64,000 bases of DNA from Promethearchaeota archaeon (GTDB taxonomy: Archaea > Asgardarchaeota > Lokiarchaeia > Sigyniarchaeales > SOKP01): the NCBI GenBank assembly GCA_048940645.1, contig JBHLOI010000005.1, positions 52,578 to 116,577 of the forward strand, in the 5' to 3' direction. The position numbers and the translations under genes are program-made. The notes under the pieces were generated by a model, which saw only the letters and a list, made by a program, of their open reading frames with translations, was not told the origin of the DNA and did not search any database. Shown one piece after another: positions 10,358-46,439 of this stretch. Numbering within the stretch: the stretch's first letter is position 1; each line of letters begins with the position of its first letter.

Positions 10358-13333
10358 GTGGGATTAAAAAGAATCTTATATAAGATTAGAAATAAATTGA
10401 ATCTTCAATTCATAAAACATACTTGGCTTAATTTAAAGAGAGATCGGGCAAAAGCAATATTTGCTATATTAGGAATTATGATCTCAATCGTTTTATTAAC
10501 TGCAATTGGGATGGTAAATGATACAATGTCATATAATTATATGCAAATAATAACCAGTAGTACTGGGAATGCTGATATTATGATCTCAAAAAGGATAAAG
10601 ACAGATATTAGTTTTAATCCTTACTTCGATGAAGACATCATAAATAATGATTTACAAGACATTGAAGGGGTTGAAGAATTCTTCCCAAGGATAATGATGC
10701 TAGTCCGAGCATCTTCAAATAAGTCCTCTACAAATTCAACTTTAGAATTGTATGGCTTAGATTTTTTAAAAGAGGCTAGTAATGGTCATATGGGAGATTT
10801 ATTATTAGTTGATGAAAATGGACTTAAAACTGGAAGTCGTTATTTAAACGAACCTGCTAGTGGACAGTGTGTGATCTTATGGAGAGTTGCTGACTTAATG
10901 AATTTAACCATAGGTGATTTTATCCATCTAGAATATTTAGATGATATTAATTTAGAAGTTGTCGCGATATGTGAACAAGATTTAAAATTCACAGAATTGG
11001 AAAATTCATTGATATTAGTTAATCTACAACAGGCACAGTCTTTTCTTGTATCAGGAAATAAGGAAATCAACTTCATATATGGTACCTTAGAAAATCCCGA
11101 GAGGGTATACGATATACGAAATATTGATGAAACTAAGAGAAAATTAAGAGAAATTGGTACACGTATACAATCTAATTTAGATATAAATGAATTTAGTGTT
11201 TCACTGCCTAAACTTGAAGAAATTGGTGCTGAGGAGTTCATGCTAATTGCTATGACTGTTATTTTTTGGTTCATTACAATTATTGGAATGCTTATTACAG
11301 GGATATTAATAAACTCAATATTATCAACTTCAACTGAAGAAAGAGTTCGGGAATACGGAATTCTTCGAGTTGTTGGTGGTAAAAAAACTTTTCCTGTTAA
11401 AGTGGTCGTGTTTGAAGGTGCTTTAATCGGAACCATCGGTTCACTTTTAGGAATTATAATAGGATTGATATTTACCCCTCCAATAATTAATTTTTTATTC
11501 GTAGTGACTGGTTTTCCGTTGCAAAATGTAGAATATATTATTCAGCCTCAAACAATCTTTCTTGCATTCTCAATAGGAGCTGGAGGTGCCTTAGCTGTTT
11601 CAGTATTACCCGCTCTTAAAACTGCTAAAATGAATTTAATAAAATCAATTACCCCCTTTCATGCAAAGGAAGAAGGATGGGAAGTTAGGAAAGAAGGAAG
11701 TGTTAATGTCAAAAGCTTTCTTGTAGGAATCTCTATTGCCACAATCGGGATGGTAGTTTTTGTTCTTTTACCTACAATATTCGTTAGTGGTGAATTTATG
11801 TTAATTGCAGGATTATTTATCGGATTACTAGGCGCTATTCTAATTGGTTTTGTTTTTGCATCAGTTGGAATTGTTCCTCTAATACAACAAATATTCCTTG
11901 GACTTATTAAACCTACAATAAGAAAATATGCTAATATTATAAAAATTTCTTTAAAACGTAATAGAAGGCGTAATACAAGCACTATAGTCATGTTTGCAAT
12001 TAGTTTTTCATTTATCTTCTTTATAACTAGTGTAACTGAGATGGAGTCCGAAAATATGTCATTAAATTTAAGATTCCAATATGGTTCAGATCTAGTTTTG
12101 ATTAATCAAGGATTAGAAGGGGACCCCAATGCTGTTACCTCAGAAATGGCAGAAGAAATTAAGATTCTTCCGGGTGTAGATGATGTAGCAATAACGCTAT
12201 ATAATATGTTTGATATAACATCAGTTTTATCAGTAATCTATGATTTTAGTGAGGGAGGAATGTTTGATGAAGAATCACTTAACGAAGCTTTTCTAAATGT
12301 TTTTGAATTTTATACAGAACAATCAGAAAGGAAATATAAAACGAGGGCCTCAGATCTAATTGCTTTTGAAGAGTTTGAAATTGGCCTTATTGGAATAGAG
12401 GAAGATTTTATCGATTTGATAGACAAAAATCTTCTGATCTGGAATAGTCCGAGAAGTGGAAATGAATATTCTTTTAGCCAACTCTTTAATCATAATGATA
12501 CATGTATAATCTCAGGATCACTTGCCACAGTTCTTGGAATTAAAGATATTGGTGAAAAAATATTAATTTCTTTTTATGAGAATGAAACAGGGACTGAAAG
12601 AGGGGACCTGGTGAGAGATCCTTTAATTTTTACGGTTGCTGGAATTTCTGGTGGAATACCAGGATTCTGGAATATTAGAAGTTCTGTTTCAATGGCGGCA
12701 GGTAGCGGAATTATTGTTTCTTTGGAGAATTATATACGATTAATGGATATTGAAAATCCAGGAAGCCCAGATATGACAGTTGATAAAATTTTTATTAATC
12801 TAATAGATGATTCTGAAGAAAACATTGAAGAAACTAAAGAAGAGATTCAATCCACACATCAAGATAAAGATTTTTTTGTTGATGATGCTATCTCGAAAAT
12901 AATCTTCCTTAATGATATGTATGAGCGACAAAGTACATTAATGGAAATTATTAATTGGTTTGCTATTGCAATAGCCGTTTTTGGCCTAATTAGTTCTATG
13001 TATGCAGTAATGCTTGAAAGGAAATTTGAAATTGGTATTTTAAGGTCTGTTGGAATGAAAGTTAAAAATGTTAGGAAATTATTCCTAATAGAAAGTATGA
13101 TTTTAATGCTATCCAGCGGAACAATGGGGACAATAATTGGAACTTATTGTGCATATTTGTTAGAGACAAATATGGGTCTTATGACAGAGATGCCGATTGT
13201 TTTTGAGGTCCCTCTTGATGTTTTATTAAGAGTTTATTTCATCTCAATATTAGTAGGATTTATAGGTATGTATATAATATTAATACGGTTGAGTAGGCAA
13301 ACAATTATGGATATCTTTAGGCAAACATTTTAA
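10358..13333 (+). CDS. FtsX/MacB-family (type VII ABC) permease with duplicated architecture
   Basis: Two large extracytoplasmic domains and two FtsX motifs (ERVREYGILRVVG, ERKFEIGILRSVG). Confidence 0.9.
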   Translation: MGLKRILYKIRNKLNLQFIKHTWLNLKRDRAKAIFAILGIMISIVLLTAIGMVNDTMSYNYMQIITSSTGNADIMISKRIKTDISFNPYFDEDIINNDLQDIEGVEEFFPRIMMLVRASSNKSSTNSTLELYGLDFLKEASNGHMGDLLLVDENGLKTGSRYLNEPASGQCVILWRVADLMNLTIGDFIHLEYLDDINLEVVAICEQDLKFTELENSLILVNLQQAQSFLVSGNKEINFIYGTLENPERVYDIRNIDETKRKLREIGTRIQSNLDINEFSVSLPKLEEIGAEEFMLIAMTVIFWFITIIGMLITGILINSILSTSTEERVREYGILRVVGGKKTFPVKVVVFEGALIGTIGSLLGIIIGLIFTPPIINFLFVVTGFPLQNVEYIIQPQTIFLAFSIGAGGALAVSVLPALKTAKMNLIKSITPFHAKEEGWEVRKEGSVNVKSFLVGISIATIGMVVFVLLPTIFVSGEFMLIAGLFIGLLGAILIGFVFASVGIVPLIQQIFLGLIKPTIRKYANIIKISLKRNRRRNTSTIVMFAISFSFIFFITSVTEMESENMSLNLRFQYGSDLVLINQGLEGDPNAVTSEMAEEIKILPGVDDVAITLYNMFDITSVLSVIYDFSEGGMFDEESLNEAFLNVFEFYTEQSERKYKTRASDLIAFEEFEIGLIGIEEDFIDLIDKNLLIWNSPRSGNEYSFSQLFNHNDTCIISGSLATVLGIKDIGEKILISFYENETGTERGDLVRDPLIFTVAGISGGIPGFWNIRSSVSMAAGSGIIVSLENYIRLMDIENPGSPDMTVDKIFINLIDDSEENIEETKEEIQSTHQDKDFFVDDAISKIIFLNDMYERQSTLMEIINWFAIAIAVFGLISSMYAVMLERKFEIGILRSVGMKVKNVRKLFLIESMILMLSSGTMGTIIGTYCAYLLETNMGLMTEMPIVFEVPLDVLLRVYFISILVGFIGMYIILIRLSRQTIMDIFRQTF

Positions 13334-42618: not shown

Positions 42619-43248
42619 TTAATCTTTTGATTTCAATTTTCGTAATTCATCTTCTAATTCTTTGACTTTTCCATCAGGTTCCGCCACAGATGGAAGTGCT
42701 CCACCAATTTCTGCTCCTATTTCTGCATCAATCTCGCCTAGTACTTCCTTAACATCGGTATCAGTGACTGCTGTATCGACCATAACCTCATTTATACCAT
42801 CAGTGGTGATTTCTTCAGTTACACTAAAGTCCTCTATATCTACTCCTATTTGTGTCATTAGTTCTGTGATTTGTGGAATAGATAATTGATTTTTTAATGC
42901 TCCCAAACTTTGTGCAATTCCATGCATAATATCAGCGACATCTTTTACTGCTGTTGCCTGTTCTAACTTAAATACCATGCCTTCAAGGTTTGTTCTAAAG
43001 TGGTCAATTGCACGCGCCTGTTTTTTTACTTGGAGATAATTTCTTGCATGAAATGCTGATCCATCCATATCACCTGCCTTTCGGAGATTTACAGCTTTAT
43101 CTCTTGCTAATTTAGCAGTCATTTCCATTTTTTTAGTCTGTCTCATTAATCGTTTATTGAAAACTTTCAATCTAATTGTTGCAGAACGAACTGTATCCTT
43201 TCTACGACCTCCAGACAACCAGTTCGATATATCTTTAAGAAAACCCAT
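42619..43248 (-). CDS. vps2: ESCRT-III subunit, Vps2/24/46-like
   Basis: N-terminal amphipathic helix MGFLKDISNWL, Snf7-type basic helical hairpin, acidic tail and MIM1-like ELEDELRKLK. Confidence 0.88.
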   Translation of the reverse strand: MGFLKDISNWLSGGRRKDTVRSATIRLKVFNKRLMRQTKKMEMTAKLARDKAVNLRKAGDMDGSAFHARNYLQVKKQARAIDHFRTNLEGMVFKLEQATAVKDVADIMHGIAQSLGALKNQLSIPQITELMTQIGVDIEDFSVTEEITTDGINEVMVDTAVTDTDVKEVLGEIDAEIGAEIGGALPSVAEPDGKVKELEDELRKLKSKD

Positions 43249-43519
43249 TTTGATTCAATCTCATTTTGACATTTCGTTATTTTATAATATATAAAAAAAT
43301 TCAAGATTATATAATTTTTTGTAGACCAATTATTGCGTCAAATGATTGAGAAGAAACTACAAATATAATAAGAACTATATAGAATCCATATTACTAAAAA
43401 GAAAATTTGAAATACCTTTTATTTAATATTTAATATAAGAAAAGATTGGTATTAGATCAATTTAAATAGCAATTGAAATATTATACATTAAAATAAGCTA
43501 AAAATAAGAGGTTATTATT

Positions 43520-44731
43520 ATCTCATCAGTAGACTCAAAATTATATAATTATGCCGTTCAAGAAGCACAAGATGCCGTAAAATATGATGAAGCAGGTAGA
43601 TATAGACAAGCTATTAACAAGTATCAACGAGCGGCTGAAATTCTTATTCAATTTGTCAAATATAATAAAAATCCTATGATGATAAGGAAATGCCAGGATC
43701 AAATTGAACAGTATGTTAATCGCGCCCTAGTTCTAAAAGCTCACTTAAGTGGTCCACGAGCACGAAGATCAGCTCCAGCAGTAAGTCCAAGTGAGCCAAA
43801 AGGAGAAGGAGGGGAGGAAAGTGCTGTTTCTTCCGAAGAACAAGAATTGATGGATTCCATTTCAGGTACAATTTTAACAGAATCACCAAATGTTAAATGG
43901 AAAGATATTGCTGGCTTGAAAGACTGTAAACAAGCTGTAAGAGAAGCTATAGTGCTACCAATTATGAAACCGCAATTATTTACTGGAGCTAGAAAACCTT
44001 GGTCGGGAATATTGCTATTTGGACCTCCAGGATGTGGAAAAACTTTACTAGCTAAGGCAGCAGCGACCGAGTGCAGAGCCACTTTTTTCAGTGTTTCATC
44101 AGCGGATTTATTAAGTAAGTGGTTAGGTGAGAGCGAGAAATTAATATCATCTCTGTTCAAATTAGCTCGAATAAAAGCACCAAGTTTAATTTTTATGGAT
44201 GAAATAGATTCTGTAGCCACAACAAGAGGAAGTGGACATGAAGGAGGGGGAGAGAGAAGGGTAAAAACTCAATTATTGCAAGAAATCCAAGGAGTAAAAT
44301 CAACTCACGACAAACCTTTACTTGTGCTCGGAGCTACAAATAGACCTTGGGATATAGATATTGCAATGTTAAGTAGGTTCGAAAAAAAGGTATATGTTCC
44401 CCTTCCAGATCAAGCAGCTAGGGCAGGAATTTTTAAGATTCATACCGCGGGTGTCAATTCTGCATTAAATGAGGAAGATTTTATTGAATTAGCTGTCCGT
44501 TCTGAAGGTTATTCAGGTCGAGACATTTCTAATGTGTGTCGAGAAGTAATAATGATTCCTGTTCGAGAATTAGATATGGGGGGATTGTTGGAAGATCCAG
44601 ATAAAGAAGTCGTTGTAAGAGATATAAATTTAAAAGATTTTCTAAAAACAATCAAAAAAGTAAAACCAATGACCACTGGGTCTGAATTAAAAAGATATCA
44701 AGATTGGGCTGCGGAATTCGGAGAATTTTAA
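43520..44731 (+). CDS. vps4: Vps4 AAA+ ATPase with N-terminal MIT domain; probable ATC start (track starts at 43676)
   Basis: The upstream frame encodes MIT helices (YAVQEAQDAVKYDEAGRYRQAINKYQRAAEIL). GPPGCGKT, SKWLGESEK, FMDEID, ATNRPW, EFG C-terminus. SD GAGGT at 43508-43512. Confidence 0.93.
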   Translation: MSSVDSKLYNYAVQEAQDAVKYDEAGRYRQAINKYQRAAEILIQFVKYNKNPMMIRKCQDQIEQYVNRALVLKAHLSGPRARRSAPAVSPSEPKGEGGEESAVSSEEQELMDSISGTILTESPNVKWKDIAGLKDCKQAVREAIVLPIMKPQLFTGARKPWSGILLFGPPGCGKTLLAKAAATECRATFFSVSSADLLSKWLGESEKLISSLFKLARIKAPSLIFMDEIDSVATTRGSGHEGGGERRVKTQLLQEIQGVKSTHDKPLLVLGATNRPWDIDIAMLSRFEKKVYVPLPDQAARAGIFKIHTAGVNSALNEEDFIELAVRSEGYSGRDISNVCREVIMIPVRELDMGGLLEDPDKEVVVRDINLKDFLKTIKKVKPMTTGSELKRYQDWAAEFGEF

Positions 44732-44753: not shown

Positions 44754-45641
44754 ATGGAACGCCAAAGAGAAAAATCAAAGGAAATCCCAAAAGAACCTAA
44801 AGAGAAAGAAGGAAAAGAATTAGACGATTTAAGGAAAGAATTAGCAAGATTAAAAGAACTTAAGAGACAAAAAGAGATTCAATTTGAGGAAAATGAAATA
44901 ATTGAGGAAGAGGGAGCACAGAATGAAAAAGCTATTACTGAAGATATTGAAACGCGCTTGGATAGAATTGAGGATTTTTTAACAAGTAAGCTTGGAGATA
45001 TAGATTCAAAAACATACAAACAACATTCTGAGCAAATAGAAAAAGAGCTTGAAGCAATTGAACAAGAGATAGTTGGTGAAAAGGGTGTTGTTGCTAAAGA
45101 AGTATCGACTTATGAATTATTACTAAACGATCATCCATGGCTTGAAGAAAAAAGATATGTATTCATGTTTTCGATTCCCAATAAAAAGACTAATCATACA
45201 GATTTTGAATCATGGAAAAGTGAATGGACAAAAGTTCTTTTTGATTATGCAAGATATGCTATACTTCATATTTTATATTTAAGAAAATTACAATCAGAAA
45301 AACCTTTTTCTAAGTTTGAAGATCGACATACTGCTTTAAAAATTATTGCTGAGGAGCTAGTTGAGAAAAATCAAGCAGATTGGTTATCCAAAAGTAAAGA
45401 AAAATTGAGAATATACTGGAAAACGCTTGATAACTGGGCAGAGGAAATTTATGAATGGGCAATGGAGATTTCACCCCTAGAACCAATTTTAATATTTGAA
45501 ATAAGAGAGTCTAACAAGGATTTTAGTAATCTTCCAAAAGAAGATTTAATTGAAATTTTCAAGATGCTTGAAAAAAATGAACGTGGAAGAATAATAAAAT
45601 CTGAAGATGGGCAAATTTCTTTTAAAATTAAAGTAGAATAA
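44754..45641 (+). CDS. vps25: ESCRT-II Vps25-like protein with N-terminal coiled-coil extension
   Basis: SWKSEWTKVLFDY and IYWKTLDNWAEEIYEW winged-helix motifs; follows vps4. Confidence 0.85.
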   Translation: MERQREKSKEIPKEPKEKEGKELDDLRKELARLKELKRQKEIQFEENEIIEEEGAQNEKAITEDIETRLDRIEDFLTSKLGDIDSKTYKQHSEQIEKELEAIEQEIVGEKGVVAKEVSTYELLLNDHPWLEEKRYVFMFSIPNKKTNHTDFESWKSEWTKVLFDYARYAILHILYLRKLQSEKPFSKFEDRHTALKIIAEELVEKNQADWLSKSKEKLRIYWKTLDNWAEEIYEWAMEISPLEPILIFEIRESNKDFSNLPKEDLIEIFKMLEKNERGRIIKSEDGQISFKIKVE

Positions 45642-45644
45642 ATT

Positions 45645-46361
45645 TTATATCGATGGAAAATACCATTGTTTACCTTTTAATAGGGATTCCCTAAATTTTG
45701 CTATTCCACTTTCCTCAAGTGATTTTAAGGCCTTTAAAGCTCTATCTTGAGGCCAGTTAAGATTAACACATACCTCTTCAAGAGATACAAAGCCATTTTT
45801 TTTAGCCACTTTAATAACTTTAGTTTGATCACTAGTATATTGAACTGGAAAGAATCTAATCATCATAGTACCAGAATCTAATTCCTGTAAATCATCAATT
45901 ACATTATTCTTCTTTAATATTCTTAAAGCTTTTTTGAGATCTTTTATCTCAACATTACTCTTTAATATTCCAGTATTTATAATATCAAAAACTTCTGAGA
46001 TTGGTATTATTCCCGCTCCAATTTCTTCTTTTTGCATAAGGACACGTTGATATGCCAACATACCTAACTTTTCATGGTCAATTTTAGAGAATCTCTTGAG
46101 TACATCATGCTCTGTGATTTGTTCTGTTATTATTTTTGAAGTAGGAATCTTGTATTGCTTCTGCAAATATTTTACTTCCTCCTTTAATTCTGGAGTCAGA
46201 GCTAATATTACTCCATGTTTTTTAGCTAGTTCTCTTAATCTTTCTTTTGTGAATTTCTCTGCAGCTGCTTTAGCCTGGATATCTTTCAACCTTAATTCTG
46301 CTGCCTTTTTCTTCATAGCCTCCTTTAGATCAATTTCATCTTCTATTTTTCGAATACCCAT
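45645..46361 (-). CDS. vps22: ESCRT-II Vps22/36-like (EAP30) protein
   Basis: MGIRKI N-terminus, tandem winged helices, GFVSL...LNWPQDRA...WYFPSI. Confidence 0.85.
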   Translation of the reverse strand: MGIRKIEDEIDLKEAMKKKAAELRLKDIQAKAAAEKFTKERLRELAKKHGVILALTPELKEEVKYLQKQYKIPTSKIITEQITEHDVLKRFSKIDHEKLGMLAYQRVLMQKEEIGAGIIPISEVFDIINTGILKSNVEIKDLKKALRILKKNNVIDDLQELDSGTMMIRFFPVQYTSDQTKVIKVAKKNGFVSLEEVCVNLNWPQDRALKALKSLEESGIAKFRESLLKGKQWYFPSI

Positions 46362-46439
46362 CTTTCTTAACACTATTTTTTAATATCTTATTTGATTAAT
46401 ATTAATAAATCTACTTATTTCTTTTCATTTAAATCAATA

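Follow-up and report, generated by a model that had tools for sequence, protein, structure and literature searches.

The window, i.e. the whole 64,000-nt stretch of DNA analyzed here, belongs to a metagenome-assembled Promethearchaeota genome (3.8 Mb on 126 contigs) and carries a gene for the ESCRT-associated ATPase Vps4 within a cluster of other ESCRT genes. The features discussed below are the following, with positions counted from the first letter of the window.

42619..43248, minus strand: ESCRT-III (Snf7 family) gene, divergent from vps4, with an ATG start (Pfam PF03357, E=1.6e-17)
43461..43468, plus strand: putative archaeal TATA box (TTTAAATA), read from the sequence
43505-43507, plus strand: in-frame stop codon TAA closing the frame 5′ of vps4, kept in eight of the nine genomes that share the ATC (see below)
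43508..43512, plus strand: Shine-Dalgarno (SD) element GAGGT, 7 nt 5′ of the ATC; the same GAGGT and 7-nt spacer occur in 9/9 ATC genomes
43520..43522, plus strand: candidate start codon ATC of vps4, the most likely initiation codon by alignment to congeners and conservation
43520..44731, plus strand: vps4 coding sequence, 403 codons plus the stop codon at 44729-44731
43553..43738, plus strand: MIT domain, a three-helix bundle (Pfam PF04212, residues 16-77 of the stop-to-stop frame)
43676..43681, plus strand: first in-frame ATG ATG (Met53-Met54), by sequence reading
44754..45641, plus strand: ESCRT-II/Vps25-like gene with an ATG start (Pfam PF05871)
45645..46379, minus strand: EAP30 (Vps22/36-like) ESCRT-II gene (Pfam PF04157)

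Downstream of the TAA at 43505-43507 the frame reads GAG GTT ATT ATT ATC TCA TCA GTA GAC, with the ATC at 43520-43522, and remains uninterrupted over 407 codons (43508-44731). An earlier note on this DNA had claimed that no ATG, GTG or TTG occurs in this frame between the stop and position 43676, and that GAGGT (43508-43512) precedes the ATC by 7 nt; all of these coordinates hold. The ATG at 43676, followed by another at 43679, is the earliest in-frame ATG/GTG/TTG of the vps4 frame and hence the start remaining for a gene caller restricted to these three codons. In this AT-rich genome, 51 coding codons devoid of ATG, GTG and TTG are expected with a probability of ~0.17; since such a stretch is not rare, the case for a non-canonical start rests on the in-frame stop and the conserved domain.

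Pfam matching confirmed the gene as vps4, as the note had it. The MIT match (PF04212) reached E=1.9e-11 and 44.3 bits (cut-off 30), spanning model positions 4-65 of 66, and was accompanied by a single AAA cassette (PF00004, 135 bits) with the Walker A motif GPPGCGKT, by AAA_lid_3 (PF17862) and by Vps4_C, the C-terminal oligomerisation helix (PF09336, 32 bits; cut-off 21.3). MIT domain, AAA module with its lid, Vps4_C and the ESCRT-III/ESCRT-II neighbors together define a Vps4/CdvC-type AAA ATPase. The N-terminus can be aligned with the MIT domain of yeast Vps4 (PDB 4niq residues 11-80) and, over residues 12-81, the region aligns to the yeast/human Vps4 MIT structures PDB 4niq, 2v6x and 4u7y, supporting the earlier view that the N-terminal stretch is an MIT domain. 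In the alignment to solved MIT domains, the first Met (43676) maps to the helix 2-3 loop, and a start there would cost MIT helices 1 and 2, that is, the two of three helices that the note had counted as lost.

The Vps25-like gene begins 23 nt past the vps4 stop codon, and the same Snf7/ESCRT-II/EAP30 neighbors lie beside vps4 at two further loci (L132 and L133). Eukaryotic and Asgard Vps4 recognizes ESCRT-III through the latter's MIM1 and MIM2 motifs (PMC7240154); compared with the description given there, the translated C-terminus of the Snf7-family neighbor (...ELEDELRKLKSKD) resembles a MIM1 motif. The Vps4 of the window shares with them the domain order MIT-AAA-Vps4_C, the Walker A motif, the ESCRT neighbors and a MIM1-like tail nearby, and differs in the start codon only, the protein itself being ordinary.

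The genus comprises 42 species genomes, and the Vps4 N-terminus was recovered from 36 of them. At the codon aligned with 43520, these genomes carry ATG (10), TTG (15), GTG (2) or ATC (9), and in all 36 the protein continues with SS(V/F)(D/E)S(K/N)LY directly after that codon. In the outgroup, i.e. genomes from other families of the order, vps4 starts with ATG in six of six. ATC 43520 is therefore found precisely at the position of the orthologs' canonical start (ATG, TTG or GTG in 27 congeners, ATG in the six outgroup genomes). A maximum-likelihood tree of the Vps4 protein, computed without the start column, groups all nine ATC genomes as a single clade (SH-aLRT 99). This clade belongs to an unresolved group that also contains the main TTG clade and two lineages with ATG, and the vps4 start codon changes only four times on the whole tree. 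The simplest history would be a single ATG-to-ATC change in the ancestor of the nine-species clade that has been retained since. The alternative outcome raised by the note, with relatives all using ATG and ATC being a private mutation, is at odds with the presence of ATC in nine species.

Between the ATC and the first ATG (codons 2-52), pairwise dN/dS within the ATC clade amounts to ~0.03-0.25, and dS climbs to 1-2 or more, or to saturation when the two subclades are compared. Low dN/dS in the face of such high dS indicates that the MIT part of the gene is translated in the ATC clade.

The ATC is read in the nine species assemblies, in the JGI contig Ga0209427_10013050 and in the GenBank assemblies GCA_048938245.1 and GCA_016839765.1, which excludes the consensus error that the note had considered: the codon is genuine. 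A metagenome pattern scan with the conserved leader returned one contig. The position of the TAA reads TTA in one ATC-clade genome (G047) and in the JGI contig. Public annotation places the start variously. The protein deposited for this window (P0002) has 403 aa and begins MSSVDSK, corresponding to the ATC start, and the gene call of GCA_048938245.1 starts at the ATC as well. The NCBI entry of a close relative (P0003, 405 aa) was called from the ATT two codons upstream, giving a product that begins MIISSVDSK, and that of GCA_016839765.1 (P0004) from a TTG 7 codons 3′ of the ATC. Proteins starting at ATG 43676 or 43679 had no exact match in the public collection. One ortholog is thus recorded with three different starts (the ATC, the upstream ATT, and the downstream TTG that costs the first 7 residues). 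A caller limited to ATG would drop MIT helices 1 and 2, and Vps4 could consequently be mis-scored as truncated or MIT-less when the domain architecture of Asgard ESCRT proteins is surveyed.

The SD element carries information on which codon initiates. Among the genus genomes tabulated, GAGGT with a 7-nt spacer is confined to the ATC clade; 25 of the 26 others carry AGGT, and most of these have a spacer of 8 nt. Over 1295 unambiguous canonical starts of this genome, AGGT/GGTG peaks at 8-10 nt from the start (counted from the T of GGT). The corresponding distance is 8 for ATC 43520, 5 for ATT 43517 and 2 for ATT 43514, and no SD occurs within 35 nt upstream of ATG 43676. By one base each, the SD of the ATC clade is longer and lies nearer to the start. 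This fits compensation for the weaker codon, albeit as a single evolutionary event, too few for statistics. Conservation points to the same codon: ATC 43520 is invariant in the nine species and, next to the two ATT codons, the sole ATH codon kept in all nine. For comparison, 24 internal Ile columns are kept in all nine species, yet the codon is unchanged in just 6 of them, and ATC, though present in 10 internal Ile columns, is kept by all nine species in none of them.

Initiation at ATT 43514 or 43517, which the note had listed as alternatives, would agree with ATT being the commonest near-cognate start in this genome and with the call underlying the 405-aa NCBI protein. Against it, 43514 reads TTT or TTA in three species of the ATC clade and 43517 reads ACT in one, both SD distances fall outside the 8-10 peak, and relatives with a canonical start begin precisely at the ATC-aligned codon; we regard this as very improbable. 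Even less credible is that only an MIT-less Vps4 is made from ATG 43676 while the 5′ stretch decays, or that an ATG was turned into ATC by faulty assembly. This would gain from 43676 being the earliest in-frame ATG, and from the truncation of a close relative's gene (the TTG call above) by a caller restricted to ATG, GTG and TTG. It is contradicted by the strong purifying selection on the 51 upstream codons through saturating synonymous divergence, by an MIT domain scoring above the Pfam cut-off, by the recurrence of the ATC across nine species, the JGI metagenome contig and both GenBank assemblies, and by the fact that an MIT query matched once only in this genome. Homology, conservation and SD spacing together favor the ATC, in line with the note's choice of 43520 over the two ATT codons, and Vps4 translation almost certainly begins at ATC 43520, not at an ATG, as judged from these comparisons.

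Is the vps4 start an isolated case? Every ORF of 150 or more codons in the genome was searched for coding-like sequence ahead of its first canonical start, and the 104 ORFs with at least 20 such codons were tested. A correctly spaced SD pointed to ATT in 12 of them, to ATA, ATC and ACG in 4 each, to CTG and AAG in 1 each, and to all other codons in 5. ATH codons were strongly enriched behind the SD (odds ratio 10.9, p=6e-10; background of the same codons inside genes, 1.3-1.6%), with SD lengths at the near-cognate sites of 4-7 nt, mostly 5-7 nt. At least 25 genes besides vps4 thus have an ATT, ATA, ATC, ACG or CTG start behind a strong SD, in a genome in which ATG makes up 67% of all starts. 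Two such loci, and that of aIF1, are as follows.

Contig C80, 14907-15863 (L068:108-1064): FolE2/MptA GTP cyclohydrolase, ATC behind GGTGAT
Contig C120, 731-1504 (L064:132-905): GPN-loop GTPase, ATT directly after TAG, behind GGAGGT
Contig C43, L063:1450-1800, minus strand: aIF1/SUI1, with the zinc knuckle (CPICSFPKELCIC) lying 5′ of the first canonical start, a GTG

In the GPN-loop GTPase (ATT) and FolE2/MptA (ATC), the Pfam domain starts no more than 6 residues after the near-cognate codon; HisB (ACG) and a hexapeptide-repeat protein (ATA) are consistent with this arrangement. FolE2 starts with ATC in 13 and with ATT in 14 of the 27 genus genomes in which the gene was found, and with ATG in none. 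The first canonical start of the GPN-loop GTPase lies 63 codons in and would forfeit the P-loop; congeners mostly have ATT or ATA there, with ATG and TTG occurring once each. FolE2/MptA, the GPN GTPase and HisB share with vps4 the in-frame stop, an SD 5-7 nt long, and, after a 6-8-nt spacer, a near-cognate codon that is followed at once by the conserved domain. They differ in history, in that FolE2 has ATH in every genus member examined, whereas vps4 went from ATG to ATC on one branch inside the genus, along with an SD change. In aIF1, an in-frame TGA lies just above the zinc knuckle, leaving ATT and AAG as candidate starts; the start-codon proofreading factor may itself have a weak start. Judged by these parallels, the vps4 ATC is one case of a genome-wide habit, and not a control device special to Vps4.

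Three further candidates were rejected. One in the window, the ATA at 11538 (minus strand), lies antisense to a permease ORF of 994 codons on the plus strand and is merely its shadow. The other two were top hits of the genome screen. In mevalonate kinase (contig C114, 13425-14315, minus strand) the stop cuts the conserved motif GEHAVVYG, and in PurA (adenylosuccinate synthetase; contig C54, 14735-16021, plus strand) it cuts the P-loop; these two frames look frameshifted, interrupted by an in-frame stop or misassembled, and not like cases of an alternative start.

AGGT/GGTG occurs at the right distance in only ~8% of unambiguous canonical starts, i.e. SD-led genes are a minority in this genome. 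By rough extrapolation, near-cognate starts may account for about one fifth of the SD-led genes.

The best explanation, to which we assign a probability of roughly 85%, is that vps4 starts at AUC 43520 behind GAGGU as an instance of a genus-wide tolerance of near-cognate codons. The leader GAGGU would pair with the 3′ end of the 16S rRNA, setting the P site 7 nt downstream; from established knowledge, this SD/anti-SD duplex would position the 30S subunit. The ordinary initiator Met-tRNA (anticodon CAU) would then be accepted on AUC with two of three bases paired and the third mismatched, to yield a full-length MIT-AAA Vps4 beginning Met-Ser-Ser-Val-Asp, as in relatives. We infer Met as the first residue, as well as the reduced initiation rate and the transcript start. 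The ATC would have arisen once from ATG and been kept with the SD one base longer and one base closer, in a genus that would tolerate ATT, ATA, ATC, ACG and CTG starts behind a strong SD. As five or six different single-mismatch codons are in use, a special initiator tRNA is unlikely and relaxed proofreading the better account. In archaea, aIF1 is the known proofreader; it is reported to destabilize initiation complexes on a non-AUG mRNA (PMC6237735), a point against the explanation. In E. coli, AUC initiation yields N-terminal Met at 1-2% of the AUG output (bioRxiv 10.1101/063800).

The anti-SD sequence and the initiator tRNA are assumed to be of standard type. Neither 16S rRNA (RF01959) nor, with ARAGORN, an initiator tRNA was found in this genome or in five genomes of the ATC clade. 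For this genome, ARAGORN reported 17 tRNAs without and 13 with intron search, among them one elongator-like tRNA-Met(CAT) and one tRNA-Ile(GAT). Detection of tRNAs is otherwise poor here (13-17 genes), probably owing to introns. The same program predicted a tRNA-SeC(TCA), which hints at selenocysteine use.

The note had gone further and proposed that weak AUC/AUU initiation sets the dosage of Vps4 or allows isoforms with and without the MIT domain. Spelled out, the ATC would be an adaptive throttle specific to Vps4: weak, aIF1-sensitive initiation would hold the ATPase sub-stoichiometric to ESCRT-III polymers, maybe with a minor MIT-less isoform made from Met53. This is compatible with the ATC as the start, with the ATC never having been swapped for ATT or ATA in the nine species, and with the low rate of AUC initiation in E. 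coli; moreover, the ESCRT-III, Vps25-like and EAP30 genes of the cluster all start with ATG here. A non-ATG vps4 start in 26 of 36 genus genomes, set against 67% ATG genome-wide, points the same way, but these genomes reflect just four changes on the tree, so the 26/36 are not independent evidence. The strengthening of the SD in the ATC clade suggests compensation and not throttling. The isoform finds no support, given the lack of an SD ahead of Met53/54 and the replacement of Met53 by Ile in three ATC-clade species. The same start architecture recurs in at least 25 unrelated genes, and as a Vps4-specific dosage or isoform device the proposal is not supported in the form in which it was put. 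We consider a dedicated throttle doubtful; some tuning of Vps4 dosage by the ATC start is possible.

Near-cognate starts are known from bacteria. In E. coli, infC and pcnB start with AUU behind an SD, and translation table 11 lists rare starts including ATT, ATC, ATA and CTG. Like vps4, infC and pcnB combine a conserved single-mismatch start behind an SD with a normal initiator tRNA and have no canonical alternative. They differ from it in the codon (AUU as opposed to AUC), in the host, which for vps4 is an archaeon with the eukaryote-type factors aIF1, aIF1A and aIF2, and in number, with two confirmed cases only in E. coli and dozens of genes in this genome. An autoregulated start of the infC type would require the product, or a factor under its control, to act back on start-codon discrimination, and Vps4 has no known role in translation.

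For archaea, the literature searched names AUG, GUG and UUG only as start codons (PMC7531240), which weighs against initiation at AUC, and a ribosome-profiling study in Haloferax put near-cognate sites aside (PMC7261190). In an Asgard archaeon of the Kariarchaeaceae, ATT has been put forward as the likely rare start of the tubulin gene AtubA (Sci Adv 2026, PMC13394414). As in vps4, reading from a rare ATH codon preceded by a plausible ribosome-binding site recovers the fold there, in another class (Heimdallarchaeia), another gene and with another codon; the AtubA start was given in a methods section for a single sequence, without comparative or selection evidence. The ATC of vps4 is hence a new and well-supported addition to the known near-cognate starts. 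It offers a clean, datable ATG-to-ATC change that was fixed and then kept while nine species diverged, in a lineage with eukaryote-type initiation factors, and together with the genome-wide pattern it provides a concrete substrate for testing the strictness of archaeal start-codon selection.

Going beyond the reading of vps4 as one case of genus-wide tolerance, it is conceivable, if rather unlikely, that the genus runs eukaryote-like initiation at lowered stringency, possibly set by an aIF1 without a canonical start, and that the ATC and SD change of vps4 represent a selected re-tuning relative to ESCRT-III. If stringency were indeed lowered, SD-led genes would be free to drift among ATG, TTG, GTG and ATH; if vps4 had been re-tuned, translation-level control of ESCRT stoichiometry would become testable in the closest relatives of eukaryotes.

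Upstream of the gene, the putative TATA box at 43461..43468 predicts a transcript start near 43490 and, consequently, a leader of ~29 nt. This box sits within a block that is almost identical across 9/9 ATC-clade genomes. Indeed, the vps4 promoter and leader at 43395-43519 (~125 nt) have hardly changed across nine species, in contrast to their saturated synonymous sites, which suggests a constraint exceeding that of the TATA box and SD. The spacer between vps4 and the divergent ESCRT-III gene contains a second block, of ~45 nt (43300-43345; GATTATATAATTTTTTGTAGACCAAT and its flanks). This block is near-identical in the ATC clade and its ATG sister clade, kept far better than synonymous sites, and is probably the ESCRT-III promoter or the site of a shared regulator.
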